From: a virus
Lineage: Duplodnaviria > Caudoviricetes
Length of the DNA: 64,000 bases
Strand: one strand, 5' to 3'
Virus record (IMG/VR): IMGVR_UViG_3300028833_000006
Coordinates: 32,001 to 96,000 of that record
Under the pieces are notes generated by a model, which saw nothing but the letters and a program-made list of their open reading frames with translations, was not told the DNA's origin and ran no database searches. Positions 1-63,130 of the stretch are shown piece by piece. How positions within the stretch are numbered: the stretch's first letter is position 1; each line of letters begins with the position of its first letter. Both the position numbers and the translations under genes were made by a program.

Positions 1-1676
1 TTAATGTATAACTCTTCTACATTTGGCTCAAACTCTGAATATTGAGAAAAATCCATATCAAGAGTATCTCGCTTGACAAACAGCTTTGAATAATCTTCAT
101 CTAATATTGTTCCATTGGCAATGATTACTCCAGCATCAAAACTATACGTGAGTGTCATATATCCAAGATGACCACTTTTGCATTCCATCACCATGTCATA
201 GCCATTAGAGTTATAATCCATAAGGTCATACTCACTGAGCGGTATTGCTCCAGTTGCTGACCCACCAAGATACAAGACCTTAATTGCTACGTCATCCGAT
301 GCCGTACCGTTTATTGTCAATGTACCATCGTCATTAACAGTCCACGTAATATTATTTGATTCGCCAGACTCACAATTGATTGGAAGAACATTCTTAGCAC
401 CATTCTTACGTAATATAGTATGAATGTTGTTATTGTTAGTCTTTACTGTATCAACCGTAGTACCTAGTTCTTTCGTAAGATATCTATTTGGATATGCATA
501 CGGAACATAGGTATAGTCAGTACAACTTGATTGAACCATCATTGCATATATGACATTGTTGTCAAATACAGCACCAGATTTTATTGATATATTAACACTC
601 ATCGAATCTTCGTACTGCTTAGTAGATGATTCTACAAGAGCATCAAATTCATGTTCTATATAATACTGAGAATTAGGAGTCTCTTGCCATAGTTCCATAT
701 CAGATACTGGAGATGGGGATTGCGGATTATTGTAATATAATGTTCCGCTTATATAATTTATACTACTAGACTTAAATAGTGCATTCGTGCTATATATCCT
801 AACTTTGACTCCAGTTTCATTAAATAACGTGTGAATGTCTATTGGCATAGTGTTCTCAAGAACTGACAATGAAAAATTCGCAGTTGCCGTGCCATTCAGC
901 GTTATACTACCGTCACTATTTACTGTCCAAGTAACACCATTTTTACTGCCACTTTCACAAGTTATCGGTAAGAAATTCATTGCGCCATTCTTACGCATCA
1001 GCAGTCTAAGGTTATCATCTGTAGTTTGTAAATTTTCTATTTCCTTAGCAACATTTACATCTTTTATCTGATTGGTTATCTGTTTATTTGTAAGAGTATA
1101 AGGCGCATATGTAAAGTCTGTGCATTCTGGTGCCACAAGCATTGTATAAATTACAGCGTTATCGAATGAAGCACCATTAGATACGGTTACAGTTAAGCCC
1201 CAATTGCCCATAACATCCGATTTAACTATACCATCTGCGATTAATACATCAGTAGTTTTTTCTGTAACAGGTTCTAAATAAGGTGAGGAAAATACCGAAC
1301 AATAGAAAGGAGTGTTTATTATAATTTCACCCATGGTTCGTTTATATACGCCACTTATAGTTAATGTTCCTACGTTTGCAATATCCGCACCAGTACTAGC
1401 AAGTACAATTTTATTTGTAGACCTGAATGCATCAACATCTATCGTGCAATTATCTACAAGAGCAATTACAGTATCTGCGGTTGCTGTACCATTTAATTTT
1501 ATTGAACCGTCCGAATTAACTGTCCATGTAAGACCATTACCAGAGCCGCTTGTTCCATTAATCGGCAAATAATTAATAGCCCCATTCTTACGCATTATTG
1601 TCTGTTGCTCATTTATCTTATCTGCGTATTCTCGCAGTATACTTTCTGCATTATCATAAGAAACAAAATTAGCCAT
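1..1676 (-). CDS. Repeat-containing tail/virion accessory protein (partial, runs off window start)
   Basis: Not in the ORF track because it is truncated. ATG at 1676 after a GGAG RBS; reads MANFVSYDNAESIL...; three ~200-aa repeats each starting RKNGAxNxLPI...TWTVNxDGxxxxNGTA (near 1595, 997 and 410). Confidence 0.7.
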   Translation of the reverse strand, partial: MANFVSYDNAESILREYADKINEQQTIMRKNGAINYLPINGTSGSGNGLTWTVNSDGSIKLNGTATADTVIALVDNCTIDVDAFRSTNKIVLASTGADIANVGTLTISGVYKRTMGEIIINTPFYCSVFSSPYLEPVTEKTTDVLIADGIVKSDVMGNWGLTVTVSNGASFDNAVIYTMLVAPECTDFTYAPYTLTNKQITNQIKDVNVAKEIENLQTTDDNLRLLMRKNGAMNFLPITCESGSKNGVTWTVNSDGSITLNGTATANFSLSVLENTMPIDIHTLFNETGVKVRIYSTNALFKSSSINYISGTLYYNNPQSPSPVSDMELWQETPNSQYYIEHEFDALVESSTKQYEDSMSVNISIKSGAVFDNNVIYAMMVQSSCTDYTYVPYAYPNRYLTKELGTTVDTVKTNNNNIHTILRKNGAKNVLPINCESGESNNITWTVNDDGTLTINGTASDDVAIKVLYLGGSATGAIPLSEYDLMDYNSNGYDMVMECKSGHLGYMTLTYSFDAGVIIANGTILDEDYSKLFVKRDTLDMDFSQYSEFEPNVEELYI

Positions 1677-1696
1677 CTTGTATTCTCCCTTTAAGT

Positions 1697-1732
1697 AAAG
1701 GGATACTCTAGGAGCACCCTAAAGTATCCCTT
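1697..1732 (-). terminator. Hairpin, probable intrinsic terminator
   Basis: AAGGGATACT...AGTATCCCTT inverted repeat just after the 1749..2516 stop. Confidence 0.45.
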
Positions 1733-1748
1733 ATCTATTAACTCTTAA

Positions 1749-2516
1749 TTACCCAAGAAGTCCTATAAGAGTATTAACTTGTTCTGATGTAAGTGCATCG
1801 GGTTCTGCGGCTTGTATGATGTCAAGTACTGTTACCTCGTCAACTTCTGCACTGTCCCACGCACCAGCCGCATGGTCTGCTTTAAACTTATAGAGTCCGT
1901 TATCGTATACAACAATATCTCCAGTTGAGTATGCTGTTGAAGTATCAAAGTTATCATCAGAAATCATCTCTCTGACACTTACAAGATTTGTTGAAACGGT
2001 ATTGATATTAGTTTGTAAAATATCAAGTAAGTCATCAACTGTAACCGCTACTACGTCATTTTCATCCCAAGCACCTGCTGAGTGTGTTGCAGTAAACTTA
2101 TAGAGAACCAAATCCTTGACACAAATGTCACCTACTGCATAATTTTCCGTTGCGTCAAACTCACTTGCAATCATGTCTGATACTGCTGTGATTGCATCCA
2201 TGATAGCATCAACGTCAATGAATGAACCAATAACGTCAAACTTCATGTCGGGTGTCTCTGCATTACCAAGATTTACTATTGCAACATTCGTACCAGCGGG
2301 ATAGTCCTTGCCTGCACCCTCTACGAATCTAGCGTCTGTTGTGAAATCATCGGTAATGTTGTAAACAAAACCATTCATAGACGCTGTAAGTGTACTCGGT
2401 AAATCATCAAATGCAGAATTACCCTTCACTACATACGCACCGTTGAGTGCTGAAAGTTTCTGACCTATTGCGGTCATAAGTTCTGTCGCATTAGCATAAG
2501 ATACAAAATTTGCCAT
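1749..2516 (-). CDS. Virion accessory protein with two CBM5/12-like carbohydrate-binding repeats
   Basis: Two repeats FDxxxxYxxGDIxVxxxxLYKFxAxHxAGAW; located downstream of the tail genes. Confidence 0.6.
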   Translation of the reverse strand: MANFVSYANATELMTAIGQKLSALNGAYVVKGNSAFDDLPSTLTASMNGFVYNITDDFTTDARFVEGAGKDYPAGTNVAIVNLGNAETPDMKFDVIGSFIDVDAIMDAITAVSDMIASEFDATENYAVGDICVKDLVLYKFTATHSAGAWDENDVVAVTVDDLLDILQTNINTVSTNLVSVREMISDDNFDTSTAYSTGDIVVYDNGLYKFKADHAAGAWDSAEVDEVTVLDIIQAAEPDALTSEQVNTLIGLLG

Positions 2517-2526
2517 ATTTCCCTCC

Positions 2527-2727
2527 TTAAATGAGACCTAATAATGTATTCATTTGCTCAAGAGTGAGTTCATCACTCTCAATTTCCAAATCATCTGTGG
2601 ACATATTACCTTCTAAAACATGTCCGTTAATCATAGGCTTATTACTTAATTCATTGTAGTTGGTAGTACCACCACCGCCACCACCGCCCTTTTTAATGGC
2701 AATCGCAAGTATTTCATTATATGTCAT
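2527..2727 (-). CDS. Small tail-associated protein
   Basis: Poly-Gly linker and NYNELSNKPMING motif typical of phage tail accessory proteins. Confidence 0.55.
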   Translation of the reverse strand: MTYNEILAIAIKKGGGGGGGTTNYNELSNKPMINGHVLEGNMSTDDLEIESDELTLEQMNTLLGLI

Positions 2728-2745
2728 ACTTAAATTACCCCCTTA

Positions 2746-2958
2746 TTATATCCAATTCCAAGTTCCATCTGACTTCTTGAATGCAAGGTCAGCATCTGCG
2801 GTTAAGACAGTACTGCCAGGCTCTATCTCTTTGCCCTTCGGAAATCCGATTATGTCATCTGTAGATGTTGTTTCTACTTCGTCTTTAGTATCGGAATATA
2901 AGGAAACTACTACTTGATTATTAAGTATTCCTTGACTTAATTCTGTTACTTTCATCAT
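2746..2958 (-). CDS. Hypothetical phage protein
   Basis: 70-aa ORF with GAGGTG RBS, in operon orientation. Confidence 0.55.
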   Translation of the reverse strand: MMKVTELSQGILNNQVVVSLYSDTKDEVETTSTDDIIGFPKGKEIEPGSTVLTADADLAFKKSDGTWNWI

Positions 2959-3049
2959 AGTTATTCACCTCGTTATGAGTACAACAACTCTCACTTTTTA
3001 TTATACTAAACTAATGGTTTTATGTAAACCTATTTTTATGACAAATGTG

Positions 3050-5011
3050 TCAGTCATCAAATCTATTTACTACAAATGCTACAGTGAACCCACTCAAGTC
3101 ATCACCAACACTTAATAAGTTTGAACCAGTCAATGAAAGGTAATACTCAAATGTTTGTGGGTCTTCTTCGATATATGAAATGAATAAATCAGTACCCCTT
3201 TGTGCAAATACCAGATATTCAACAGTCTCTGCACTAAAATTATCCCCACATACTTGCCAATCAAATCCTAAATCAGTACCATCTGGTGCGTGACTTGCAA
3301 ATATATTTTCCAAACTATCAAAAGGTGACACTATTGTCACATCAAATCCTGTAGATGTATTTGTAACTGTGACTGACTGCACTTTATCTAAATCAAATCC
3401 ACTATCTAAAGTTGCCTTAACATATCTGTTGGGCTGACCAGAAATTACAGTGGTATCTGGTGCATATGCAACATAAGTACCTTGGGTAGTCTCATGATTG
3501 ATTATCTCTAGATTACCAAGAGTGCCACCATCAACTACAACTTTCTTATATTTGATTTTGTACAACTCCTCCATAATATCAGAGAATGACTCACCAATAA
3601 CTTGTCGTATTTTTGCTGACGAATACGTATTCGTTGTATTAGTTATATTATCATTAATTAAACCACACCTTTGACTGTATATCTGTACACTTTGTATATA
3701 CTCTCCTTGACTTGTTGAAGTAGATAAAAGACCATGTGTGCCAAGAACAGTGTGTGTAGTCGTATTTACTAAATACATATACATAGAACTGCCGGTCACA
3801 ATAAGTACAAGTGCTATGTCATTATCAATATGATAATATGTGAAATTAGTTAAATTTGTAGCATATCCGTATGATAAATCGTACGTAGTCAAATCTGCCT
3901 TATCTAATACTTGACCTACAACCTCAGTACCATCCATATAAGTTAATGTAATTGCCATTGGAATATCTGAATTATTCCAAGGGTAGAAAATTATAGCACC
4001 TTCATCACCACTATATGCTGTATAACTTTCCCAAGTCTCACCCAAATTCGTAGAGTAGAATGGAACTGGTATTCTACTACCGCTTTCGATAATGACAGAA
4101 CTTACAGTTGACCACGTTGTATCTCCAAAAACATCTGCTACGATTTTCTCACTTGAGTATGTCGTATTTAAAGACTTATTTTCATCATCAATCAGATTAC
4201 TTATGGGCTGTACATTACCATAAACCAATACCATTGGATAATATACATAATAATCTTGTGCGTATCGTATACCAACATTAGTTTGAGTTATAGTATGTGT
4301 TGTTGCATTAAGTCCTACAACTACAGCATAATATGATGAACCATAGTAAGTTAATGCAACTAACAGAATGTCACCGCTAGTGCCTGTCACCCATGAATCT
4401 ACAACGGTATAATTTGATATAGAATCTATAAATGCGACACTAGTGTCAGATTGTAAATATCTGTTCAACACATCGTAGCCACAATATGTCCTTAATACTG
4501 TGGGTACATCTGTGGGTGTAATACCGCTAGGTAAATTACTAGAATCATTGATTTGATAGAACCTAATCGGTAAAATTTCAGACCCAAATGTATAACTATG
4601 CTTAGTATGCTCACCATCATAATAACAAATGTCAATTGAACTGACTTGGTGAAGTGCTGAAAGTTTCATGCTGTTTGTATTTTGCATTACAAACAATTGT
4701 GAATCTATCACACTTTTAAGTTGTCGCAAAGAATCAAGTGTTGCGACATCTCTACGAGACGTACTTGTGAAATTACTGCCATCTAATTTGTGACCAGTTA
4801 TATTCATGTACATCAGAGCATATGCATTATCCACGATAGTATACACGTCATTGACAATGGATAAATCAACGTCTTTTAAGCCATTGGATATTGCCTCATC
4901 TGCGTTATCTGCTGCGTCTTCAATACCATCTTCAATATGTGATAATCTATCTGCACTAATTGGTGTTGTTTCGTCTGGGTAATCTACCCAATTTTGTTTG
5001 TCATATGCCAT
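3050..5011 (-). CDS. Tail fibre / receptor-binding protein
   Basis: N-terminus MAYDKQNW...TPISADRLSHIEDGI is typical of tail fibres; repeated IxDxxxxxxxTYSSxKI linker; position after the baseplate genes. Confidence 0.65.
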   Translation of the reverse strand: MAYDKQNWVDYPDETTPISADRLSHIEDGIEDAADNADEAISNGLKDVDLSIVNDVYTIVDNAYALMYMNITGHKLDGSNFTSTSRRDVATLDSLRQLKSVIDSQLFVMQNTNSMKLSALHQVSSIDICYYDGEHTKHSYTFGSEILPIRFYQINDSSNLPSGITPTDVPTVLRTYCGYDVLNRYLQSDTSVAFIDSISNYTVVDSWVTGTSGDILLVALTYYGSSYYAVVVGLNATTHTITQTNVGIRYAQDYYVYYPMVLVYGNVQPISNLIDDENKSLNTTYSSEKIVADVFGDTTWSTVSSVIIESGSRIPVPFYSTNLGETWESYTAYSGDEGAIIFYPWNNSDIPMAITLTYMDGTEVVGQVLDKADLTTYDLSYGYATNLTNFTYYHIDNDIALVLIVTGSSMYMYLVNTTTHTVLGTHGLLSTSTSQGEYIQSVQIYSQRCGLINDNITNTTNTYSSAKIRQVIGESFSDIMEELYKIKYKKVVVDGGTLGNLEIINHETTQGTYVAYAPDTTVISGQPNRYVKATLDSGFDLDKVQSVTVTNTSTGFDVTIVSPFDSLENIFASHAPDGTDLGFDWQVCGDNFSAETVEYLVFAQRGTDLFISYIEEDPQTFEYYLSLTGSNLLSVGDDLSGFTVAFVVNRFDD

Positions 5012-5022
5012 AAATAATCTCC

Positions 5023-6507
5023 TTATGATAAATCTTCATAATATGAATCACTGTTATAGTATCCAGGATTGTAATAACACACATGCAAATTCGATACAGA
5101 ATATTTTTCATCATTAGATACTATACCAATTAATGGATTAAACCAGTATTTTCTAGCCATCAATACATTATAATTATGCATAATGTTGTCAGAAACATTG
5201 TGCGAAGCACTGATTTCACCGAAAACACATACCGCATGTGGTGAAATATTGTGCATTGCATCAACATTATACTCAAAACCAGAATCTGTACCATTCTTTG
5301 TGGTGATAAATCCATTACAAAGACTACGCTTAATAGCATTCCAAAAATCGTTATAAGTATATAGTCTATAATTTGACCTACCGTATGACACCCTAATGTC
5401 ATTAAAGTTCTCACCACTAGATTCATGTATTTCATGCGCATTAAGACCACCCTCATGGTCTGCAAATGCTAATATCTGTTTTTTGGGGTCTATACCAAAA
5501 TAATCTGTACCTGTTCCAGTAAATTTTTCGAGATACAAATATAAACAACACTGCCAACTTGTTGATGTGGTTAATGGTGCATTTGGAAATACGGCAAAAT
5601 CTCGAAGGTTATAATTATATTCACCTGCAGCTGGGTAACGTCCACCGCTATATACTTCATTCCAACTATATATAACCTTTCTAGTTATACCCCCATATGA
5701 ATTAATTGCAATAACCCCTAAGTTACTCTTGAGACCACCAACATTAATTTGTTGAGTAAATACAAAATAACTTAAACCAGACATAGGTGATTTAAGTGCA
5801 AGAGACTCAAGATTACCACCACTACTTGGGATGAATGACGTAATTTGCGTAATTTCGCTATCCTTTGCATTAAATAATTTACCCCGAAATATAAAATACT
5901 CTGTAATGCCTTTTTGATATTCACTACGAACACCTGTTACTCGTAAATCTTCCGCATAACTACTTGAATACGGCACATTTATATATTCAACGGTGTGTGA
6001 CGTAAAATCTCCATTAAAATTAATTACAGTAATATCATAACCGCCACTAGGACAAACAATTATTCTATTGTGATGTGTAACAAAACATGAAACACTCATC
6101 GCTGTGGTGAAAGTGAGATTAACCGTATCAAGTAAATTTCCACTAATATCATAAATTGATATTGTATGAGTATAACTTCCATAAACACTTGACGGTAAAC
6201 AGAAAATAATACCATTATATTCAGCATATGTTCTATATATCTGCCATGCACTATCACGGTCGCCCAAAAACGAAACTAAACTGTTACTATATGAATTTGT
6301 AGACGGTACATAATTATTACGATTACCCACATAAATCCTTTTACTGCCACCTTGTGAGATTTGACTTAATAAATAACCGCCCTTAAACGCAAACCCATTC
6401 TCCCACACAACAACACCATCATGTATCCACTTAGTGAGATTAACACCATTGTATACAGGTTGCTCAACTATTGTTCCGTTGTAGTTTAGATTTCTTACTC
6501 TTGCCAT
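5023..6507 (-). CDS. Putative tail/baseplate protein
   Basis: 494-aa beta-rich ORF between the hub and fibre genes. Confidence 0.5.
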   Translation of the reverse strand: MARVRNLNYNGTIVEQPVYNGVNLTKWIHDGVVVWENGFAFKGGYLLSQISQGGSKRIYVGNRNNYVPSTNSYSNSLVSFLGDRDSAWQIYRTYAEYNGIIFCLPSSVYGSYTHTISIYDISGNLLDTVNLTFTTAMSVSCFVTHHNRIIVCPSGGYDITVINFNGDFTSHTVEYINVPYSSSYAEDLRVTGVRSEYQKGITEYFIFRGKLFNAKDSEITQITSFIPSSGGNLESLALKSPMSGLSYFVFTQQINVGGLKSNLGVIAINSYGGITRKVIYSWNEVYSGGRYPAAGEYNYNLRDFAVFPNAPLTTSTSWQCCLYLYLEKFTGTGTDYFGIDPKKQILAFADHEGGLNAHEIHESSGENFNDIRVSYGRSNYRLYTYNDFWNAIKRSLCNGFITTKNGTDSGFEYNVDAMHNISPHAVCVFGEISASHNVSDNIMHNYNVLMARKYWFNPLIGIVSNDEKYSVSNLHVCYYNPGYYNSDSYYEDLS

Positions 6508-6511
6508 AAAT

Positions 6512-7852
6512 TTATGAAAGCATGGTAGAAGATGTTTCTAGAATGCCTGTACTAGCATCCCAATTAACAACTACCATTACTTCTTGACCCCCAAAAGTGC
6601 CATATAAATTATCCCAATCGCTGTCATACTCTTCAAACTTATAGTCATAGTCTTTACTACTTGTATCTTGTTTTGTTTGAATAGTCTGTAGTCTAGCATT
6701 GATGTCTGTTATAAATTCGTTTTGATACTCTTCGCCCTTTGACTCAAAGTTATCTTTTAATGCTTGTATGCCAGTCAGTTTTCTATTGAATATATAGAAA
6801 TCCATAGACTGTGTTGCTTGTTGTGCGTCTAAATAATAGAATGATACTGCATCTACTCCGCACTCTGCATAGGGTAAGCCATTATTTGTTGATAAATACG
6901 GATAGTATGTTATGTTCTGCACCTTCATATAGATTTCTCTTGCTATATTCTTCAAAACTTGAGTACTTAATTTATATGCAAACATATTGGCTTGAATAAT
7001 ATAATTGTTCTCACCACTACCATATGTGACACCAGTGTCAGTTTCACTTTCCCTTATAGTTACTTTATCAACTGGCTTTACTTCAAAATCTTGATACTCT
7101 ACAAGTCTGTAATACCCCATTATTTCTGAATTTCTGTAAGGAGACTCAGATGAACCACCTGGGAATATATCATAAGACGGGAACAGCGCAAGTGACGGAT
7201 ATAATGCGTTTACTGTCTGTTTAAGATACCTAAACTCAAATAATCCGTCTCTATTAACTATACCGAAACAACCATTTATCTGACATAGTGACTTTAGTAC
7301 CACTAGACTTTGTAACGTCTTAGGCTCATATTGCTTATTTATGACAACACTGTCATTTGGTAATGTTGACTCTACGTAAGGTAAATGTATATAACTCAAT
7401 AAACTTCTTCTCAATGCCCCCAAAGTTATGGGAAAATGAAGATTGTTATACCAATTAGCAACTTCTACTTGACCACATTTATACAATATGTCATAAGCAG
7501 TTATCTTTATAAAATTCTTTCCAGTTTCTTTCTTGGCTTCATCTACAATGCCCTTAAATAACGGTATCGGCTCATCTTCTGTACCTTCTGTATAAATGGT
7601 AGCCTCTATACGTTTACCCTTGAGTACCTTTTGATATGTTGCATTATTTCGTATTTGTACCTCAAATTTACTTGAGATACATCCCACAAATTCTATACTA
7701 GTATTCTCAAGTATGCTTTCGTACAAGTTCATTGACTCAGCATATACTTCACTCGTAGGTATAGTTAAAGACAACTCTGGAAATGTCAATACCAAAGTCT
7801 TCTGCACACTATCACTTTTATATGCTCTTCTTACTTCATCTGATACATTCAT
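6512..7852 (-). CDS. Tail tip/baseplate hub (Tal-like) protein
   Basis: Second gene after the tape measure; FVGCISSKFEV and GCFGIVNRDG motifs of siphovirus hub proteins. Confidence 0.6.
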   Translation of the reverse strand: MNVSDEVRRAYKSDSVQKTLVLTFPELSLTIPTSEVYAESMNLYESILENTSIEFVGCISSKFEVQIRNNATYQKVLKGKRIEATIYTEGTEDEPIPLFKGIVDEAKKETGKNFIKITAYDILYKCGQVEVANWYNNLHFPITLGALRRSLLSYIHLPYVESTLPNDSVVINKQYEPKTLQSLVVLKSLCQINGCFGIVNRDGLFEFRYLKQTVNALYPSLALFPSYDIFPGGSSESPYRNSEIMGYYRLVEYQDFEVKPVDKVTIRESETDTGVTYGSGENNYIIQANMFAYKLSTQVLKNIAREIYMKVQNITYYPYLSTNNGLPYAECGVDAVSFYYLDAQQATQSMDFYIFNRKLTGIQALKDNFESKGEEYQNEFITDINARLQTIQTKQDTSSKDYDYKFEEYDSDWDNLYGTFGGQEVMVVVNWDASTGILETSSTMLS

Positions 7853-7857
7853 ATGCT

Positions 7858-8259
7858 TTAATACTCAATAAACTGAAACTTAAGTTGCTCAAATCTACCA
7901 CCCATATGTTTTACAGTTGTTTGAAAACTAGGGTCAAGATAGAAGTGTCCTGTTTTCATTGAAAAACTCTCGGTATCAAAGTAAGTACAGTTAGCGTCTC
8001 TTTCTTTTGAATTAATATAATTACTTGTGAGACCTTGCATTATTTCTGCCACTTCTTCCCACTTGAGATTTTTACGTGTGGTGATAGTAATGTCAGTTTT
8101 AGTGTGACTAACTGCATTTCTATGTGTAAGACCTGTTTGGTCTGTATATGGGTCTAAATCTTGCCTTTGATTAGGTTTGATATCATACCCACCCTCATTT
8201 ATATATTTGTCTGGAAATATAAAGTTTCCGAACTTAAATGTATAACTAGGAACTGACAT
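7858..8259 (-). CDS. Distal tail (Dit-like) protein
   Basis: 133 aa directly after the tape measure gene, ends FQFIEY. Confidence 0.6.
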   Translation of the reverse strand: MSVPSYTFKFGNFIFPDKYINEGGYDIKPNQRQDLDPYTDQTGLTHRNAVSHTKTDITITTRKNLKWEEVAEIMQGLTSNYINSKERDANCTYFDTESFSMKTGHFYLDPSFQTTVKHMGGRFEQLKFQFIEY

Positions 8260-8273
8260 TACTTTTCACTCCT

Positions 8274-14725: not shown

Positions 14726-14727
14726 TT

Positions 14728-53265: not shown

Positions 53266-53291
53266 AATTACCTCTCAATCTGACACTACTG

Positions 53292-54068: not shown

Positions 54069-54084
54069 GAACAATCACCTAAAA

Positions 54085-54228: not shown

Positions 54229-54239
54229 AAAAATCTCCT

Positions 54240-54729: not shown

Positions 54730-54918
54730 TCAATCTCTTTGCTCACCAATTAATCCCTTTTCTATACAATCCCAATAAGCATGTACTAACACATGTGTCA
54801 ATGCTTCGTCTACTGATATCCCTCTAGAACTGACATATCTGTCAACATATCCCTTGAATATAGGCTTGTTTTCATACTCGCTCTTCCAATCAATAATTGT
54901 CTCAATCATATCATACAC
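54730..54918 (-). CDS. Hypothetical protein
   Basis: FKGYVDRY motif. Confidence 0.45.
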   Translation of the reverse strand: MYDMIETIIDWKSEYENKPIFKGYVDRYVSSRGISVDEALTHVLVHAYWDCIEKGLIGEQRD

Positions 54919-54923
54919 CGTCC

Positions 54924-55883: not shown

Positions 55884-56074
55884 TATTCCCACCTATATTC
55901 AACTCTGTGTTGTCCATGATATTCAACAACAACTCCCTATATCCACTCAATAACATATTTGCTTTACACCAATCTAAGTTTGGTATCCGCTCCATGTTCT
56001 CTTGCTTTATCTTTTCAGATACTTCATTAATATCTAATATGGTCAACATAGCATCTGTTGCTGTCATATACACC

Positions 56075-56932
56075 TCACATCCAATTCTGTCTAATATCCA
56101 AAAGCCACATATCAAACAAACTTGATTTATTCAAAGATGGCACTTGTAATTCCTGTAAATACTTACTAGTTATACTAACACCTAATGCATAATTCAAAGT
56201 ATTTTCATTGGTATCATTTTTCTTCACATCTGACTGTAATCTGACAAAACATTCACTCATAAATGCCTTTAAGAATAGTCGTAAATCATATTTATCACTC
56301 TCACCCTTAAATGCCAATTTATTACCAATCTTAAATGAATTAGCACCACTCACAACTGCGATATTATCAATCACCTTATCAATATATGTCTTAAATTCTA
56401 CAACACCTTGGGATAGCATTAAATCAATATCGCCAGGAGTCTCACATATACTTAACAAAATATTAATGACATTGGTGTCATTAATGTCTGGGTGTGCGTA
56501 CTCAACATATTCTCTCAACTCACTCTCCGTATAAATATCCATTGAATACACAAATCCACGACTAATCAATGTCGGTAATATCTGCTCCCTATTCTCTACT
56601 GTGAAAATCCAATATGCATTATTTGGCGGCTCTTCTGTCACCTTCAATAACGCATTCTGTGACGCTACTCTTAATGCTCCAGCATTTGGTATAAGGTATA
56701 CTGTTGGTCTTACAATATCATATGATTGCTGGATAATATCTTTAATATTCGCTGTTGTACCATCACTCACAATTAACTGTGCATCTAATTTTTCTGCTAC
56801 TCTTTCAGAAATAGTTTGTCTACCACTTCCTTTTGCACCAACTAAAATAATAAATCTCGGCAATGTGTTTTGTGATATATCAGCATACAATTTCTGCTGT
56901 ATATCCTTTTGCCCTATAACTACTCTCATCAC
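56075..56932 (-). CDS. holB: DNA polymerase III delta-prime subunit-like
   Basis: VIGQ, GAKGSGR degenerate Walker A, QNALLKVTEEPP and LPTLISR. Confidence 0.75.
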   Translation of the reverse strand: MMRVVIGQKDIQQKLYADISQNTLPRFIILVGAKGSGRQTISERVAEKLDAQLIVSDGTTANIKDIIQQSYDIVRPTVYLIPNAGALRVASQNALLKVTEEPPNNAYWIFTVENREQILPTLISRGFVYSMDIYTESELREYVEYAHPDINDTNVINILLSICETPGDIDLMLSQGVVEFKTYIDKVIDNIAVVSGANSFKIGNKLAFKGESDKYDLRLFLKAFMSECFVRLQSDVKKNDTNENTLNYALGVSITSKYLQELQVPSLNKSSLFDMWLLDIRQNWM

Positions 56933-57963
56933 TCACTCCTATTCATGAACAATAACAATTCTGCCTCCAATACAGACCTAGGATTGGTCTCCCAACGCAT
57001 ACCCCCATTCACCTTAACTATCACATCTAATAGTTTATAAAATGTCTGATAATCCTTATCTGTATAGTTATCTAAATCCGTTTTATGAGTGTTTGGTATT
57101 TTTATATATTTAAAGTTTTTATATAGACTATACTTACATACATCTAACAGCATATCAGTAAAATTCTTAATAAACTGTTTCATATCAGCACCATTCTGAT
57201 ATACCGTATCTATGCACTCTAACGCTTTTATGACATCTCTGTCATTTATTGCGTTAAGCATAGTAAACATGGTGTCATAATCGGCTATACCAAGTGCTTT
57301 TAGAACATTATCAATCGTAAGTTGCTCCGAATAACCAAGACACTTCTCAAGTAAAGTAATTGCATCACGCATACCGCCATCTGCCAAACGACTGACATAA
57401 TCAATAGCATCAATATTACTCTCATCAACCACAATACCCTCATTTGCAAGAATATACTGTAATCTATGCATAATACCTTGCTGTGATATTCTCTTCAAAT
57501 CGTACCTCTGGACTCTTGAAAGAATAGTCTTCGGTATCTTCTCTGGATTAGTAGTACACAAGATGAATATAGCCTTAAGCGGTGGCTCTTCAAGTGTTTT
57601 CAACAATGCCTGAAATGCTTGTGAACTCAACGAGTGGACTTCATCTATTAGAAATATCTTATACTCACTATCAATAGATTGTGTCTTTGCTTGATTTATT
57701 ATCTCTCTGATATTTTCAACACTACTATTACTAGCGGCATCAAGTTCTATAATATTCCCTCGGTGATTATTTATCTCAGCACCGAATAGGCGGCCCATTG
57801 TTGTTTTCCCAGTGCCCTGAGAACCTGTCAATAAATATGCTGGCTTATAATTCTTAGACTTCAATTGATTTGAAAGTATCGTTTTTATCTCATCTTGCTC
57901 CACCACCTCACTCATAGATTGTGGTCTATATTTTGTTGCCAAACTCCTTGTATTATTAATCAT
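56929..57963 (-). CDS. dnaX: DNA polymerase III gamma/tau subunit
   Basis: LATKYRPQ, GSQGTGKT, ELDAASN, IDEVH, LLKTLEEPP and GGMRDA. Confidence 0.92.
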   Translation of the reverse strand: MINNTRSLATKYRPQSMSEVVEQDEIKTILSNQLKSKNYKPAYLLTGSQGTGKTTMGRLFGAEINNHRGNIIELDAASNSSVENIREIINQAKTQSIDSEYKIFLIDEVHSLSSQAFQALLKTLEEPPLKAIFILCTTNPEKIPKTILSRVQRYDLKRISQQGIMHRLQYILANEGIVVDESNIDAIDYVSRLADGGMRDAITLLEKCLGYSEQLTIDNVLKALGIADYDTMFTMLNAINDRDVIKALECIDTVYQNGADMKQFIKNFTDMLLDVCKYSLYKNFKYIKIPNTHKTDLDNYTDKDYQTFYKLLDVIVKVNGGMRWETNPRSVLEAELLLFMNRSE

Positions 57964-58280
57964 TTATTTTCTCCCATGTAATCTATTTCTGACTGTATAT
58001 CCTTTATTTTATCCTGTAGTGATTTTATCCTTTTCTGTCGTTTATATACTTCCAACTCTTTTGTATAATCCTTATTTATAAGTTCTTCAACGGTTATCCC
58101 TAAATACTGAGTAATCGTGTATATCACATTAAATGTGTATCTATGTTTTCTGCTAAAATATCCTTGTGATACATCCGCTAAAGATTCAAATATACCTAAT
58201 GGAATACCACGTATCTTTGATATTGCTTTTAAATTCTTATAGATTATCTCTGAATAATCTTGTGCTAACTGCTTTCTCAT
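57960..58280 (-). CDS. XRE-like HTH protein
   Basis: ESLADVSQGYFSR...YLGITVEELI. Confidence 0.6.
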   Translation of the reverse strand: MRKQLAQDYSEIIYKNLKAISKIRGIPLGIFESLADVSQGYFSRKHRYTFNVIYTITQYLGITVEELINKDYTKELEVYKRQKRIKSLQDKIKDIQSEIDYMGENK

Positions 58281-58285
58281 CTGTA

Positions 58286-58504
58286 TTATCCACCGTAATG
58301 CTCTTCATCAACATTCTCTCTTATCACTGCCTTACCTTGTTTTAATCTAACTGACAACTCTGTCAGTAATGCAATATCATATTTCAATCTATCTGGATTT
58401 TCTAAGAATTGCTTGGTTAGATTAAAATCAGCATTATCCAATGATTTTTCTATGGCTAATGCTGTTTCTATCATTCGTATATATTTATTTGTTACATCCA
58501 TCAT
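58286..58504 (-). CDS. Hypothetical protein
   Basis: ORF track. Confidence 0.45.
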   Translation of the reverse strand: MMDVTNKYIRMIETALAIEKSLDNADFNLTKQFLENPDRLKYDIALLTELSVRLKQGKAVIRENVDEEHYGG

Positions 58505-58845
58505 ATATGTAAATCACCCCATATTATTTTTAGAAAGGACACCATACTGCATTCTCGCATTCCTATATGATGAGCGTGTTCGTGATACACAGGAAATGAT
58601 GCATTACACACGACCGCTGAAACCTTGTATGAAATCCGCAACCCTAGTGGTGTTGGGAAATACCTAACTACGTAGTATAGGACAACTTCGGAATTACCTA
58701 TAACCTATACATGCTAAATCGCTTTATCGAAACCGTCCGTATCTCACTTAGTGCACACAACGTCTTGAATGCACATGTACGGCTTAATCTTCTCAAAAAG
58801 TTTTTCTATCAATGTTGTCATTATAACATTCTATACAATGTTTTG

Positions 58846-59142
58846 TCAACCCAAAACTTGCTTTAATTCCTTTAAATATGTCTGTATATTTATTAGAGTA
58901 GGCTCTTGTTGTGATGCTAAATCTATCACGTAATTTACCTGCTCTAACTTCCGCTCTGCGGCTAATGTTCGCCTATCCAACTCCTTATACAAATCAGTAG
59001 TTCTTAAATTTGCAAGCACTATCAGTTTCTCATCTTCACTTAATCCCAATGTCCTATTCTGTATTTCCTCTATCTCCATAGGGCTTAACTTCTTATCAAT
59101 CATTTGCACTATCCTCTCTGTCGTCACCACCAAATAAATCAC
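58846..59142 (-). CDS. Hypothetical protein
   Basis: ORF; probable start MIDKK. Confidence 0.5.
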   Translation of the reverse strand: MIYLVVTTERIVQMIDKKLSPMEIEEIQNRTLGLSEDEKLIVLANLRTTDLYKELDRRTLAAERKLEQVNYVIDLASQQEPTLINIQTYLKELKQVLG

Positions 59143-59314
59143 TTACAGACATATCAAAAAAATTTGCAATCTTTTTGATAAACCCAAAATTCAAACTATC
59201 CCAATTCTCTACTCTACTTATATATCCAACGGAACAACCAATGGCTGTCTCTAAATCGCTCATCTTCAACTTGCGCTCTTTCAACATTGCCTTTATTCTC
59301 TCATAAACACCCAT
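59096..59314 (-). CDS. XRE-family HTH transcriptional regulator
   Basis: ERIKAMLKERKLKMSDLETAIGCSVGYISRVE...KIANFFDMSVSDL. Confidence 0.75.
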   Translation of the reverse strand: MGVYERIKAMLKERKLKMSDLETAIGCSVGYISRVENWDSLNFGFIKKIANFFDMSVSDLFGGDDREDSAND

Positions 59315-59323
59315 ACTATCACC

Positions 59324-59668
59324 TCAACTCTCACTCAAATGCTCAACAAGTATCTTAAACAATCTCTCATCTATGACATAATAGTTCTCGCTACCTTCGC
59401 CATAATTAAAACATAATGCTGAATATTCTTTACCAGTCTCAAACGCTTCTTCTCTGTTCTTCTTTAGCCACTCGTGCTTTATAGCAAAGGATTTTTTCTC
59501 CTCAATACATGTCTTACACTCTATCAAAAATATATTACTGACAGCAACGTCACCACCAACAAATTTAGCCGCACCACTATTCGGAACTGTTTTTCCACCA
59601 AGTGTCTTAGCAACCTTTTTTTCCATATTACTTGAATAAAATCTTGTGGGTCTTCTTTTATTGTCCAA
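59324..59668 (-). CDS. Holliday-junction resolvase-like PD-(D/E)xK nuclease
   Basis: EKKVAK...NSGA...GD...IECK. Confidence 0.65.
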   Translation of the reverse strand: MDNKRRPTRFYSSNMEKKVAKTLGGKTVPNSGAAKFVGGDVAVSNIFLIECKTCIEEKKSFAIKHEWLKKNREEAFETGKEYSALCFNYGEGSENYYVIDERLFKILVEHLSES

Positions 59669-59678
59669 TAATTTACCC

Positions 59679-59912
59679 TCACTTCTTTACGAGTATATAT
59701 CCATTTGATAATGCCTTTAGCACACAATCTAATGCATCATAAACATCTTTTGTTATTTTAATATTCACCATTTCAGTATCTACGGTCGGAACGGTCTGCA
59801 TACGCAACTGATTACAAGCCCACTCCAAACTATCTTCCCATTTACTATGTGCTAACATATCACACCACCTCCGCATTCTCAAATACAACACCATTGCCCA
59901 AACTTCTAGCAA
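59679..59912 (-). CDS. Hypothetical protein
   Basis: ORF; start uncertain. Confidence 0.4.
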   Translation of the reverse strand: MLEVWAMVLYLRMRRWCDMLAHSKWEDSLEWACNQLRMQTVPTVDTEMVNIKITKDVYDALDCVLKALSNGYILVKK

Positions 59913-60054
59913 CTTCTATTGCTCTATCTATGGTCTCATATGTACCATAGAACCAAAACTCAGCACTATCTGCTCTAGCAACTGTATATGGCTCTAGTTC
60001 ATAACTCGGGAAATTCTTTAATGTCACTTCTGTCTTAATTTTCTTATTTGCCAT
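59860..60054 (-). CDS. Hypothetical protein
   Basis: FWFYGTYE motif. Confidence 0.5.
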   Translation of the reverse strand: MANKKIKTEVTLKNFPSYELEPYTVARADSAEFWFYGTYETIDRAIEVARSLGNGVVFENAEVV

Positions 60055-60206
60055 GCTACTCTTCCTCCAATAATTTCTTTAACGTGTCAGCATCTATCTT
60101 CAATAATTTTGCACTATCGACCAAATTATCAAAATCACAATCCTCAATAATATCATATGCTTGTGTCTTGCTCATTCTCCTATCGTTGCACAAAATACTT
60201 GCAATC

Positions 60207-60833
60207 TTAATTCTCTGATATGGTGTTGTCATCTACTTCCTCACATTCCTTTATTGCCGATTTGGGTATCCACCCAACCCAATGTATATTAACTAACTGC
60301 TCTGCTATACTATCAACATCATCAACATCTGCCACAATACCAACTTTATGTATACACTCTATACCCAATCCGTATTTTCTACTAACGGGATTTGATAATG
60401 TCTTACCACAACGCATACAACGGATTATAGGTAATGCTTCACCTTTTAAAGACATTTTAACCATACCCTTTGTTTGCTCCAATACCTCACCAACCATATT
60501 GACTAATGGCATGGGATTATCATTATTCCATTTAGCCATAAAATCAAATTCTAACGTGGCTTTTTTGGTCATATAACTCTTTACGAATATGCGGTATACA
60601 TTTCCATTAACAAACTCATTAGAATTAGTTTTTGGGGCAATTTTAATGGGTTCTGCGCTAGGCTGAGTACCAGTAATATCTACTGGTACTCTCCTAGGCT
60701 GTACGCTATGCTTAAGAGATATCGTTTGACTTTTAGTAAAGTCAATATCGTCAACACTGACAGCAATGTCATTTATCTCAATTGACCCACCCCAACTTGA
60801 TATTGAATTTTTCAAAATCTCCAACTCATTCAT
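60207..60833 (-). CDS. Zinc-finger (DUF6011-like) domain protein
   Basis: CMRCGKTLSNPVSRKYGLGIEC and WIPKSAI. Confidence 0.6.
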   Translation of the reverse strand: MNELEILKNSISSWGGSIEINDIAVSVDDIDFTKSQTISLKHSVQPRRVPVDITGTQPSAEPIKIAPKTNSNEFVNGNVYRIFVKSYMTKKATLEFDFMAKWNNDNPMPLVNMVGEVLEQTKGMVKMSLKGEALPIIRCMRCGKTLSNPVSRKYGLGIECIHKVGIVADVDDVDSIAEQLVNIHWVGWIPKSAIKECEEVDDNTISEN

Positions 60834-61035
60834 CAAATATCTTCTCCGATAATGTGCATAGTGCATCCGTAACTACTATACCTATTACATTTATAGCCAT
60901 TGGCGATATGTTTACACCATCTTTCTCAGCGCATTCTGCACTGTGTGCTAACCTCGATACTACCTCATCTATAGTATCTTCAATGTAATCCGATAATGTA
61001 TTTTCGCTCAACAAAACAGTCCTATCAGTATTCAC
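60826..61035 (-). CDS. Hypothetical protein
   Basis: ORF track. Confidence 0.4.
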   Translation of the reverse strand: MNTDRTVLLSENTLSDYIEDTIDEVVSRLAHSAECAEKDGVNISPMAINVIGIVVTDALCTLSEKIFDE

Positions 61036-61517
61036 TACTTTTTATTCTCCCTCGGTAAAACTGCGACAGGTCTTTCTGACTGCTTAGGCATCTTCTCAAG
61101 TATCTGCATCATAACATTGCCAAGTCTATTGATTGACAACTCTATATTCTTTAACTGCTCGGCTATCTCTGAATTATTTGCTATTGTTGTCTCATCATTC
61201 TTGACAGTATTGTCAGTAGGTGTGCCATATCTAGGTACTTTATAAATATCTTTGAGATGGAATATTTCAAGTATCTTATCATAAAAATCTACGGTCACTC
61301 TACCAACACTAATATATTCAGTAGTGTCGAACACCTTATCAACTTCTTCCTTATATCTCACATAACTTGTTCTCATATTGCTAAATACTGAATCATTCAT
61401 ACCATTCAGTACACACTGTTTTGACATTACAAGCCCATTTGCATGACAATATGCAAGAACATCACTCCTCAATCTTGCTTCATCAACTATTACTACAGGT
61501 CTTTTTCCCACGTTCAT
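61035..61517 (-). CDS. Hypothetical protein
   Basis: AGGAGG RBS. Confidence 0.55.
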   Translation of the reverse strand: MNVGKRPVVIVDEARLRSDVLAYCHANGLVMSKQCVLNGMNDSVFSNMRTSYVRYKEEVDKVFDTTEYISVGRVTVDFYDKILEIFHLKDIYKVPRYGTPTDNTVKNDETTIANNSEIAEQLKNIELSINRLGNVMMQILEKMPKQSERPVAVLPRENKK

Positions 61518-61533
61518 CTTTAATCCTCCTTAA

Positions 61534-61746
61534 TTATTTCAAAATGTAATTTGCGTACTGACAAGTGTTTCCGTTACGGTCTTTAGTTACCTCAATCCTA
61601 GTCTCAATGTCATATCCATCCTCTCTAAGATTGAATATTATGGATGACAACCTTGTTGCCCCATACTGCTGAATTGCTTCCCAAGATGTAATACTACCCT
61701 TGTCCTTTAAGTGCTCAAGCACTTGCTGTGTTTTCGTTACTCGCAT
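61534..61746 (-). CDS. Winged HTH DNA-binding protein
   Basis: VLEHLKDKGSITSWEAIQQYGATRLSSIIFNLR. Confidence 0.7.
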   Translation of the reverse strand: MRVTKTQQVLEHLKDKGSITSWEAIQQYGATRLSSIIFNLREDGYDIETRIEVTKDRNGNTCQYANYILK

Positions 61747-61769
61747 TTTGTTACCCTCCTTTATTTAAC

Positions 61770-61970
61770 TTACACACCTATTCCACGGTCTGCATCTGAT
61801 ACTATCTCATCTACGTACCACGTAAGACCGTCAAGAACAATATTATCACCAACATTGAGTATCTTATTGGAATTTAACTCATTCCTATACTCATCACTTC
61901 TTGTGTTGGCTCTCTCACTTGAAATAATGTACTTTGCTCTAAACTTCATTTTGGTCTCTCCTTTCTTCAA
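61770..61970 (-). CDS. Hypothetical protein
   Basis: Follows a promoter; start probably MKFRA. Confidence 0.45.
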   Translation of the reverse strand: MKKGETKMKFRAKYIISSERANTRSDEYRNELNSNKILNVGDNIVLDGLTWYVDEIVSDADRGIGV

Positions 61971-62107
61971 TACCTATAAGCACCTCTCAAAACTATGTGT
62001 TTTTCAGTACCATAGTTATATTATCATAGTATATAATGTTTTGTCAACAAAAAATTGAGATATTTTTCAATTTTTTTTCAAATCTCAAAAACATCCCAAT
62101 TTTAAGC

Positions 62108-63130
62108 CTATTCTATGGTGTGTATTTTCTCATCTATCTTATTCTCAATCATCTTGAGTACATCTGTATGTTCTTCAAGATACTCGTATACCTTATTCAC
62201 CCCCTGCACTTTGGCTAACTCTTCTCCAGTCTCCGTATCAACTATAGCATACCAAGCACCGCTTTTAACTATCATATCCTCTTTAATAGATACTTCAACT
62301 AAATCCTTAAAGTAATCAATGCCATTGAGATAATTAAGTGTATAAAAACCTTGTCTCCTTAATGGTGGACATGTCTTATTCTTAACCATAGTAGCCATTA
62401 CATAATTACCTGCTGGATTTTCTGCACCTTTTGTAAGGTCATTCCCATTAGCATCAAAATACTTACCCATTCTAAACTCAATTCTGACACTTGTGTCATG
62501 TTTCCAACCACGACCACCAACAGTCTTCGTACCACCGAACATACTATCCAAATCGTCTCTCAACTGATTTATACCAATAAATGTACAATTATGCCTATGA
62601 CACAATCCAACCGCTTTAGCACTAAAATTAGTAAGTGCCATTGCTATACCGCCATATGTCCTTTCTGCAACTGACTTCTCCATTGCTTGATTAGATACCA
62701 TTACACCCAAACTATCGAGCACTACAAGCCCAACATCACCAGTATCTATCATGTCAAGAATAAATTGGAATATCTCTTCTGCGCCTTGATTAGTAGGCTG
62801 TAATAATATCAAATCCTCAACACTGACATTTAATTTACTCGCCCATACAAAATCAAGTGTATTCTCGCAATCTACCCATAATACCCTTCTTGCACCATCC
62901 ATACACTGATAATTTGCAACAATATCAAGTGATGAACTGCTTTTGCCACTATGCTCAGGGCCAGAAAACTCAATCAACTTACCCACAGGTAAACCACCAT
63001 ATGTCATATAGTTCAACCTCGGACTTGTGAATGGTATTCTATCATAGTCATATTTCGGTAAACCATTATGCACCAAATCTTCTTTAAATTTCTTGTTAAA
63101 GTCTTTCATTACCTCATCAATACTTGCCAT
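62108..63130 (-). CDS. recA: RecA-family recombinase
   Basis: GGLPVGKLIEFSGPEHSGKS, VVLDSLG, INQLR, GGRGWKH and KNKT. Confidence 0.92.
   Translation of the reverse strand: MASIDEVMKDFNKKFKEDLVHNGLPKYDYDRIPFTSPRLNYMTYGGLPVGKLIEFSGPEHSGKSSSSLDIVANYQCMDGARRVLWVDCENTLDFVWASKLNVSVEDLILLQPTNQGAEEIFQFILDMIDTGDVGLVVLDSLGVMVSNQAMEKSVAERTYGGIAMALTNFSAKAVGLCHRHNCTFIGINQLRDDLDSMFGGTKTVGGRGWKHDTSVRIEFRMGKYFDANGNDLTKGAENPAGNYVMATMVKNKTCPPLRRQGFYTLNYLNGIDYFKDLVEVSIKEDMIVKSGAWYAIVDTETGEELAKVQGVNKVYEYLEEHTDVLKMIENKIDEKIHTIE

Follow-up and report, generated by a model that had tools for sequence, protein, structure and literature searches.

The 111,212-bp genome of an uncultivated, circularly assembled phage carries 54 exact copies of the palindrome TGACA-N4-TGTCA, a symmetric word that is selected for and is shared with the two nearest relatives of the phage, whose host is of the Gram-positive type. 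The motif is probably a protein-binding site on double-stranded DNA, and its copies show a distribution complementary to that of the early-type promoters. As a whole proposal, to which we give somewhat less than an even chance, the motif would be the docking site of a homodimeric, probably phage-encoded protein acting on transcription. The window analysed here is a stretch of 64,000 nucleotides, bases 32001-96000 of the virus record.

Number, anatomy and selection of the sites

An exact scan of the window recovered 31 copies against 0.19 expected, at exactly the positions listed in the original prediction, and 100 dinucleotide shuffles of the window contained at most two. Thirteen copies lie in 551-20325 and 18 in 48773-62498; the interval 20-48 kb, for which an exact scan had been proposed, does not have a similar density, with 0 copies in 20326-48772. 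Across the whole genome the reversed control word was absent, and no arm spacing from 0 to 12 was enriched except 4 bp. One-mismatch variants number only 19 genome-wide and include the near-matches noticed earlier at 4435, 10544 and 19532, which are real. In the replication, effector, morphogenesis and lysis genes a site recurs about every 1.5 kb, and most copies fall within replication and structural genes. The copies in the window are as follows, listed without strand:

551-564: inside a 794-aa tail-region ORF
2117-2130: inside 255-aa ORF 1749-2516
3039-3052: TGA is the stop of ORF 3050-5011 (minor-tail-like); TTTACA-N17-TATAAT promoter-like site 10 nt downstream
3326-3339: inside ORF 3050-5011
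7027-7040: inside ORF 6512-7852 (tail-spike-like, phrog_18190)
7342-7355: inside ORF 6512-7852
9566-9579: inside 1941-aa ORF 8274-14099, whose size and position lead us to read it as the tape measure
14536-14549: inside ORF 14138-14725
15235-15248: inside ORF 14728-15369
16201-16214: inside ORF 16079-16570
16432-16445: inside ORF 16079-16570
19253-19266: inside scaffold gene 19097-19837
20312-20325: 3' part of portal gene 20061-22223; last before the gap
48773-48786: TGA is the stop of 60-aa ORF 48784-48966; TerS start 60 nt downstream
49036-49049: intergenic; an extended -10 promoter-like site (TGATATAAT) lies 28 nt upstream
49133-49146: TGA is the stop of ORF 49144-49674; then a terminator-like hairpin
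49688-49701: TGA is the stop of ORF 49699-50478; next start codon 13 nt downstream
50547-50560: intergenic; 1 nt past the stop of ORF 50562-51002
51017-51030: TGA is the stop of ORF 51028-51222; next start codon 14 nt downstream
52265-52278: intergenic; preceded by a terminator-like hairpin and then an extended -10 site (TGGTATAAT), the latter 7 nt upstream; start at 52249 lies 15 nt downstream
53281-53294: TGA is the stop of ART-like ORF 53292-54068; next start codon 15 nt downstream
54831-54844: inside 59-aa ORF 54730-54909
55244-55257: inside clamp-loader delta-like gene 54924-55883
55523-55536: inside the same delta-like gene
55686-55699: inside the same delta-like gene; reading frame differs from its other two copies
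56467-56480: inside delta'-like gene 56075-56929
57231-57244: inside DnaX-like clamp-loader gene 56929-57963
58352-58365: inside 72-aa ORF 58286-58504
60758-60771: inside DUF6011 gene 60207-60833
61202-61215: inside ORF 61035-61517
62485-62498: inside RecA/UvsX-like gene 62108-63130

In full the site is a symmetric 20-mer, WWN-TGACA-N4-TGTCA-NWW, in which the 5-bp arms (9 bp centre to centre) are invariant and the 4-bp spacer is free, as first described. A or T occupies the flanking positions -3, -2, +2 and +3 in 52, 47, 45 and 47 of the 54 copies, in all frame classes. Base-pair covariation was sought in the flanks and spacer and none was found, so that a protein dimer on double-stranded DNA is a better match to the site than an RNA hairpin. 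The dimeric binder foreseen in the original prediction agrees with this anatomy, in which invariant arms, a free spacer and symmetric, unpaired A/T flanks would suit a protein of two-fold symmetry.

Selection acts strongly on the motif at the level of the DNA sequence itself. The codon-shuffled control that had been proposed left about 0.7 in-ORF copies under synonymous shuffling, as against 41 observed. The in-ORF copies occupy two reading frames, and 29 of the 162 GTC codons of the genome, GTC being the rarest Val codon, fall within the motif. The description of the array as embedded in genes holds for these 41 copies and fails for about a quarter (13-15 of 54), which lie outside genes at junctions.

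The motif-free block and the promoters

The largest interval without sites, and the gene with which it begins, are:

20326-48772, minus strand: motif-free block, 28.5 kb, no exact copy
48194-48712, minus strand: small terminase subunit gene, TerS (Terminase_2), first gene of the block

A gap of this length arises in only about 5 per million random placements (P about 5e-6), so the gap behind the proposed 28-kb exclusion zone is real; since zero copies equals the chance expectation (about 0.08) and half-sites are not depleted there, what the zone shows is a lack of enrichment and not, as such, active exclusion. The block comprises the 5' portion of the portal gene, a three-piece TerL with a group I intron, TerS and about 22 kb of small or accessory genes, including ART-like, zeta-toxin-like, QueC-like and HNH genes. 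Its tetranucleotide signature is native (r=0.88 against the replication region), and recent import therefore does not explain the missing sites.

About 19 of the roughly 30 near-consensus sigma-A promoters fall within these 28.5 kb, as do eight of the ten members of a near-identical promoter family carrying the palindrome ATAAG-N6-CTTAT between -35 and -10. At genome 107177 a promoter of perfect consensus stands at the head of a second motif-free block of small genes, which spans 7 kb (genome 100.7-107.6 kb). The 28.5-kb zone is better seen as the part of the genome where consensus sigma-A promoters and small accessory genes are chiefly concentrated, and sites and early-type promoters are distributed in a complementary manner. 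In our reading the division into early and non-early parts is not clean, because consensus promoters at window positions 58849 and 62047 sit among motif copies in the replication region. The first copy past the early-type block lies 1.9 kb into the portal gene, away from the boundary.

For three copies in four, no promoter-like site lies nearby. At genome 26643 and 15607, copies overlap a promoter-like site in its -35 element and spacer, although the site at 26643 may not be a real promoter, since it shares bases with the start codon called for the following ORF; others follow extended -10 sites by 7 and 28 nt (window 52314 and 49106, respectively). Because several copies thus adjoin or overlap promoter-like sequences, the view that the sites are something other than ordinary operators was too strong.

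Candidate binders, proposed function and alternatives

Two HTH genes bear on the identity of the binder:

59096-59314, minus strand: 72-aa XRE-type HTH_3 gene; candidate binder, found only in the motif-bearing lineage
61534-61746, minus strand: 70-aa HTH_39 gene; disfavoured as binder

Of the three HTH genes nominated originally, the one at 59096-59314, which encodes an XRE/Cro-type protein, offers the best though unproven candidate; what keeps this protein in consideration is that it occurs in the motif-bearing lineage alone, and its only relatives in two very large protein libraries share 97% and 76% identity. Its pairing with the motif would be one of several possible, since the phage encodes several HTH genes, and at least three further palindromes in its genome (ATAAG-N6-CTTAT, TGAAA-N4-TTTCA and ACATT-N6-AATGT) are likewise lineage-specific. 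The HTH_39 gene at 61534 is disfavoured by an 80%-identical ortholog in a relative without any motif, and at 57960 no HTH domain was detected.

The two closest relatives carry the motif. L101, the nearest (66% DnaX identity), has two exact copies in 1.7 kb, one of them 4 codons away from the position of the DnaX-like copy 57231-57244; in L103 (76% HTH_3 identity) the counterpart of copy 58352-58365 lies at a near-equal offset from the gene start (139 vs 133 nt) with one spacer base changed. Relatives at 55-58% identity have no motif. By these comparisons the motif tracks a narrow phage lineage.

From the sequence we infer protein binding, the likely binder and an effect on repression or timing. 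The 20-mer would be the high-affinity docking site of a sequence-specific homodimer, probably phage-encoded. At some promoters, dimers would be bound over the promoter itself or immediately behind it, and they would serve as roadblocks within the co-oriented gene train, holding back non-early genes while the site-free blocks, small genes with their own family of consensus sigma-A promoters, are read.

A less likely reading gives the sites no part in transcription and has them mark or organise the genome, by loading or anchoring a DNA-organising protein in the style of Noc, SlmA, MatP, RacA or ParB/KorB; compaction, organisation of replication or recombination, packaging, or telling phage from host DNA could be the purpose. 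The dispersal of mostly intragenic sites without a preferred position inside genes would suit such a role, as would the single large site-free domain, the preservation of motif density at greater divergence while single positions turn over, and the densest stretch, 15 copies in the 10 kb directly upstream of terS. This reading leaves the coincidence of the site-free domain with the strong-promoter block unexplained, and no partition, packaging or nuclease partner is identified. A search of the genome found no ParB_N domain gene. It found no integrase or resolvase gene either, which leaves no evidence for a prophage state, and segregation or lysogeny roles lack a basis; the original picture of a coated chromosomal domain, drawn from RacA, MatP, Noc and ParB, is an analogy only.

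A host regulator is improbable. Crp/Fnr-type boxes have a 5-N4-5 layout with half-site centres 9 bp apart, which the motif matches, and a dimer of this type might couple replication and late genes to host physiology, the phage binder being still only a candidate. Against it, relatives with the syntenic replication module are entirely motif-free, and the motif follows a narrow phage lineage, as would be expected of a phage-encoded reader.

Slightly more doubtful still is a role in RNA, in which UGACA-NNNN-UGUCA would serve as an mRNA hairpin for processing, stabilisation or translational control. All genes lie on one strand, and every copy would therefore be transcribed as a hairpin, whose stem is predicted to form with a mean pair probability of 0.61 (80-nt context). 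Seven junction copies supply the stop codon of the upstream gene through the motif's TGA, and four lie 13-15 nt upstream of start codons, immediately 5' of the ribosome-binding site; one-mismatch variants that keep a G-U wobble number 10 on the mRNA strand vs 4 on the other, which is not significant. However, an invariant stem with a free loop inverts the usual requirement of proteins that read hairpins, there are no compensatory stem variants, the symmetric A/T flanks are required without pairing, the free energy of the hairpin by itself is only about -3 kcal/mol, and the majority of copies lie deep within ORFs. Finally, short recombination sites that shuffle effector cassettes adjoining terS are very improbable: nearly every gene boundary in 48.7-53.3 kb has a copy, and insertions and deletions bounded by their repeat were reported in Cluster O phages (PMC4351075), but 41 copies lie within conserved genes where exchange would be harmful, the paralogous effector genes in the zone (starts 41866, 42579 and 43877) have none, and 14 bp is very short for homologous exchange.

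Comparison with known systems

Dispersed phage repeats of this kind have been described, and the closest precedent is the 17-bp dyad repeat TGTTCGG-N3-CCGAACA of Cluster O mycobacteriophages, whose copies number in the tens in each genome (Corndog has 34) and for which a dimeric DNA-binding protein was presumed and a transcriptional role judged unlikely (Cresawn et al. 2015, PMC4351075). Both motifs have invariant arms, a varying spacer and very few one-mismatch variants, are spread unevenly within and between genes, and are common to close relatives and absent elsewhere. The Cluster O repeat is unrelated in sequence, host phylum and phage lineage; the arms of the present motif are shorter (5 bp with A/T flanks), its copies are more numerous, more densely spaced and more often intragenic (about 76%), and they are complementary to a consensus sigma-A promoter block, a relation not reported for Cluster O.

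The operators and stoperators of the Cluster A repressor (L5 gp71 type) likewise comprise more than 20 identical sites genome-wide, some at promoters and most elsewhere, and are thought to stop both initiation and elongation of transcription (PMC9283540). They differ in being asymmetric, monomer-bound 13-mers oriented with transcription in short intergenic spaces of temperate phages, whereas the present motif is palindromic and mostly intragenic in a genome without integrase.

The Noc NBS, ParB parS and KorB OB sites are 13-16-bp palindromes dispersed over a replicon, also within genes, and Noc has a site-free domain. The present array resembles them in both respects, but the half-site sequences differ and the phage has no ParB_N gene.

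Unrelated IMG/VR phages contain the identical word TGACA-N4-TGTCA in tandem, as 4-10 copies with 22-23-bp phasing inside or adjoining an HTH_36 gene, like the origin iterons of lambda-O-like initiators; in three of them (L025, L029 and L033, one shared arrangement) an unannotated 440-aa ORF follows. The copies there form phased clusters, whereas those of the present phage are single, spaced by about 1.5 kb, and no HTH_36 gene was found in its genome.

The SPBRE sites of SPbeta likewise recur in the genome of a large Firmicutes phage. They differ in number, about ten, and in lying without exception in promoter regions; SPbeta is temperate, and its sites are read by a master repressor of recombinase fold, MrpR, found by ChAP-seq decades after the sites had been predicted (PMC10516654).

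Enrichment and sequence of the palindrome

An exact search of the window for the palindrome TGACA-N4-TGTCA returned 31 copies, compared with 0.19 expected per 64 kb, at the same coordinates as the 31 of the original prediction, and no shuffle of the window contained more than 2. The complete 111,212-bp record, to which coordinates labelled "genome" refer, carries 54 copies and none of a reversed control word. N4 is the sole enriched spacing, as spacings of 0-3 and 5-12 gave 0 or 1 copy each, and only 19 one-mismatch variants accompany the 54 exact copies (each exact word has 30 possible such variants), indicating that the exact word is what is kept. The copies are distributed as 41 within ORFs and 13 at gene junctions. 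Synonymous-codon shuffling within ORFs, the control proposed with the original prediction, left about 0.7 in-ORF copies in place of the observed 41, and the shuffles thus rule out chance, composition and codon bias as the cause. A conserved peptide is likewise ruled out by the use of two reading frames (29 and 12 copies), by the intergenic copies and by the differences among the encoded peptides. The third frame is unused because TGA would be read as a stop codon; at seven junctions the TGA of the motif is itself the stop codon of the upstream gene. GTC is the rarest valine codon of the phage (162 of 2206), and 29 of these 162 fall in the motif. The observation is solid and selection on the motif is strong. 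A methyltransferase or restriction target, suggested by the GAC-N6-GTC within the motif and by two N6/N4 methylases of the phage, was set aside, since we infer that such a target would not be enriched and that ten specified bases are too long for one.

The sequence preference extends beyond the arms. Positions -3 and -2 and positions +2 and +3 are A or T in 52, 47, 45 and 47 of the 54 copies, respectively, and the positions directly flanking the arms (-1 and +1) are free. This preference was seen in both coding frames and at junctions when set against codon-position backgrounds, so the unit is a symmetric 20-mer. Pairing between flank positions, or between spacer positions, was at chance level among the 54 copies. 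An invariant stem with a free centre is what would be expected of a protein dimer that contacts half-sites in two major grooves spaced 9 bp apart, and is the opposite of what a hairpin-binding protein usually needs; together with the unpaired flanks, it leads us to interpret the motif as a probable double-stranded DNA site. A signal acting as an RNA hairpin is a minor rival. Such a hairpin has only about -3 kcal/mol yet would often form, and four junction copies lie 13-15 nt upstream of start codons; however, base-pair covariation and compensatory stem variants are both absent, the arms never varying.

Most copies are well inside ORFs, with no bias towards any part of the gene. Copies are most crowded in the 10 kb upstream of terS, which contains 15 and has one at nearly all gene junctions. 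A few copies are close to promoter-like sites: some overlap the -35 element and spacer of the sites at genome 26643 and 15607, one lies 7 nt after an extended -10 site at window 52314, itself preceded by a terminator-like hairpin, and one lies 28 nt after the extended -10 site (window 49106) at the head of the small-ORF-TerS unit. These placements, few in number, fit repression better than activation. The site at genome 26643 coincides partly with the start codon called for the following ORF and may therefore not be a real promoter.

Genome organization and the motif-free zone

Nearly every gene lies on the minus strand. Along the direction of transcription, TerS and TerL with an HNH gene are followed by small and accessory genes over about 22 kb, among them ART-like, zeta-toxin-like and HNH genes, then by portal, scaffold, major head protein and tail genes, the lysin, and a long replication module. 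This module encodes an SNF2 helicase with an intein, DnaB, primase, PolA, the two N6/N4 methylases, the beta clamp, a radical SAM protein, a PARG-like protein, RecA/UvsX and a three-subunit clamp loader. The SNF2-type helicase gene (genome 17219-19828), whose intein has an HNH endonuclease domain, contains three motif copies. Two tRNA genes (window 63496-63567 and 63720-63790, minus strand) adjoin the MazG and RecA genes. The phage also encodes two ADP-ribosyltransferase-like proteins, a zeta-toxin-like kinase and a microbial PARG-like protein.

Features of the terminase region and accessory loci
Window 45238-48001: large terminase region, with TerL pieces at 47549-48001, 46690-47064 and 45973-46431
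Window 47164-47574: group I intron (match to Rfam RF00028)
Window 45238-45972: HNH_3 endonuclease gene, directly after TerL
Window 39836-40660, 42591-43877 and 53292-54068, and genome 98528-99361: ADP-ribosylation, zeta-toxin and PARG-like loci

The record ends in a 127-bp direct repeat (genome 1-127 and 111086-111212). It falls within the PolA reading frame, and real terminal repeats were therefore rejected; most simply, the repeat is read as a k-mer overlap left by the assembler from a genome that is circular or permuted. Strong ribosome-binding sites and sigma-A consensus promoters point to a Firmicutes-type host. The portal is about 37% identical to those of Clostridioides difficile siphoviruses, and the clamp loader 40-46% identical to those of Dp-1, MS1, phiCTP1 and Flasso. 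A host search with the portal and lysin in genome contigs found nothing.

The original prediction had described an exclusion zone between 20326 and 48772 of the window. The gap is real, as a 28.5-kb interval among 54 sites on 111 kb would arise in about 5 per million random placements, but what it demonstrates is a lack of enrichment and not avoidance: only about 0.08 copies are expected there by chance and half-sites are as frequent as elsewhere. Composition gives no support to recently imported DNA, the tetranucleotide correlation of the gap with the replication region (0.88) being as high as that of any pair of regions.

What distinguishes the gap is its promoters. Of roughly 30 coding-strand sites that nearly match the consensus TTGACA-N16-18-TATAAT, about 19 lie within it, including eight of ten near-identical consensus sigma-A promoters.

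Family of near-identical sigma-A promoters
Window 24953-24968, 28151, 29347, 30923, 34170, 34586, 35830 and 38560, minus strand: copies within the gap
Genome 10157 and 10836, minus strand: two further copies

All of these promoters are preceded by a TGAAAAATTTTTCA palindrome and have a second one, ATAAG-N6-CTTAT, between their -35 and -10 elements; the family is probably the operator of a second regulator shutting off early genes. The copies at genome 10.1-10.8 kb stand upstream of a 7-kb stretch of small genes whose single motif copy is at the junction where it starts, and the other 7-kb block of small genes, itself free of the motif, has a perfect consensus promoter at its head (genome 107177). 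The motif distribution is thus complementary to seemingly early, host-polymerase-driven blocks of small genes, "early" being our own label. Within the replication region, which does bear the motif, there are also consensus promoters of another family (window 58849 and 62047). The first of these is a perfect TTGACA-N18-TATAAT promoter with a TG, and about 340 nt of ORF-free leader come after it (window 58505-58849). Promoters of this type are also present at window 62047 and genome 9138. The leader is conserved in part in the relative L103, and it may be a structured RNA; it had no Rfam match at gathering score.

Relatives and candidate binding proteins

No close relatives were found among GenBank phages or in IMG/VR. 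The nearest contig by clamp loader, L101 (SRR22808627; 66% identity, 1.7 kb), carries two exact copies and one with a single mismatch, and its DnaX copy lies four codons from that of this phage; at this level of divergence, individual positions change but the motif and its density are retained. The closer relative L103 (ERZ28633325; about 76-81% nucleotide identity) retains the copy of the 72-aa ORF at a similar distance into the gene; a spacer base differs and the arms are identical. Four relatives with a syntenic replication module and clamp loaders at 55-58% identity (L098, L099, L102 and L104; 61 kb) had neither the motif nor any other enriched palindrome with 5-bp arms. Dp-1 and phiCTP1 have no copy and Flasso has one. 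The presence of the motif in L101 and L103, a comparison resting on 3 kb of close-relative DNA, and its absence from the relatives at 55-58% indicate that the array belongs to a narrow lineage.

Among the candidate binders of the original prediction, the ORF at window 57960 shows no HTH domain. The gene at 61534-61746 (HTH_39) has 80%-identical orthologs in many relatives, one of them L104, which has no exact or near copy in a 12.7-kb replication module, so this gene is an unlikely reader and was rejected on phyletic grounds. The remaining HTH candidate, the 72-aa XRE-type HTH_3 (59096-59314), has only two relatives among 5.8 billion sequences, at 97% and 76%, and a full HMMER search of 1.8 billion representatives added nothing but generic XRE hits below 47%. 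L103, which bears the motif, is the source of the 76% relative. This lineage distribution fits HTH_3 as a candidate binder, but it does not amount to proof, because the other palindromic operator families of the phage are all equally lineage-specific and the phage has at least three further HTH genes. Other small HTH proteins that could read the site are encoded at genome 2541-2648 and 20904-21695, besides a sigma-4-like gene near genome 25-29 kb. Alternatively, the array could be bound by a host regulator.

Interpretation and comparison with known systems

The best reading of the array is as the sites of a dimeric DNA-binding protein, spread over the genome and sparing the early-type promoter blocks. 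As a tentative proposal, we favour a role of the array in holding back or timing non-early transcription. As one specific but improbable form of this proposal, the array could be a replication-coupled timer. An early-made repressor would occupy the 54 sites of the infecting genome, closing promoters and stopping elongating polymerase in genes for replication, effectors, structure and lysis; replication would then multiply high-affinity sites until they outnumber the repressor pool, releasing the late genes. Intragenic copies would serve as decoys selected for number and not for position. If true, this timer would account for the sharp consensus and the turnover of positions, as well as for the site-free units, which would be those that must be read at the highest occupancy.

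The array is a useful test case: copies are very numerous, the consensus is extremely sharp, candidate binders are few, there is a clear relation to one promoter class, and 28 kb of native site-free DNA serve as an internal negative control. The reader protein and its effect would tell timing devices, silencers and genome organisers apart and would give a rule for interpreting similar arrays in metagenomic phage genomes.

The same word was found in unrelated phages. Scanning IMG/VR for two copies 70-100 bp apart, the only spacing class covered, returned 87 loci, and 28 records counted whole had 2-10 copies each. Where positions were listed, the copies were grouped locally or as tandem iterons and in no case as a genome-wide array; often the groups were tandem arrays of 4-10 copies, phased at 22-23 bp, within an HTH_36 gene or next to it. 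Five or six such copies are present at each of L025, L026, L029, L033 and L083; L025, L029 and L033 share one arrangement, in which the HTH_36 gene is followed by an unannotated 440-aa ORF. The HTH_36-associated copies look like a lambda-O-like origin of replication and show that phage winged-helix or HTH proteins reading this word exist. Whereas lambda-O-type origins have at least three iterons phased at about 22 bp, the closest pair here is 97 bp apart, and the genome has neither a phased cluster nor an HTH_36 gene. BLAST with all proteins of the phage revealed no binder shared with the 87 loci.

Among dispersed binding sites, the arrays of ParB, Noc and KorB resemble this one in being 13-16-bp palindromes scattered over a replicon, also within genes, and a purely organisational role is an alternative to transcriptional control. 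However, such arrays are encoded together with a ParB_N protein, and the phage genome has no PF02195 match at E<=1. Stoperators are asymmetric, transcription-oriented, intergenic sites of temperate phages with integration functions (PMC9283540), unlike the perfect palindrome with symmetric flanks found here in a complete record that has no Phage_integrase or Resolvase match. SPBRE sites are found at promoters and number only about ten (PMC10516654).

Reports of dispersed in-gene palindromes in phages, with no function assigned, go back to at least 2015. The nearest described counterpart is the 17-bp repeat TGTTCGG-N3-CCGAACA of Cluster O mycobacteriophages, with 34 copies (14 between and 20 within ORFs), invariant 7-bp arms, a variable 3-bp spacer, conservation inside the cluster and an unknown binder, for which the authors doubted a transcriptional role (PMC4351075). 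Both repeats have invariant inverted-repeat arms, a variable spacer and few near-matches, occur in tens of copies per genome, far above chance, within and between ORFs, and are found in close relatives and missing from distant ones. Since word and host type differ and there is no sequence homology, the relation is one of analogy and not of common descent. The array belongs to a known but unexplained type of phage repeat, within which its copy number, its intragenic share and its complementarity with one promoter class are particular to it.
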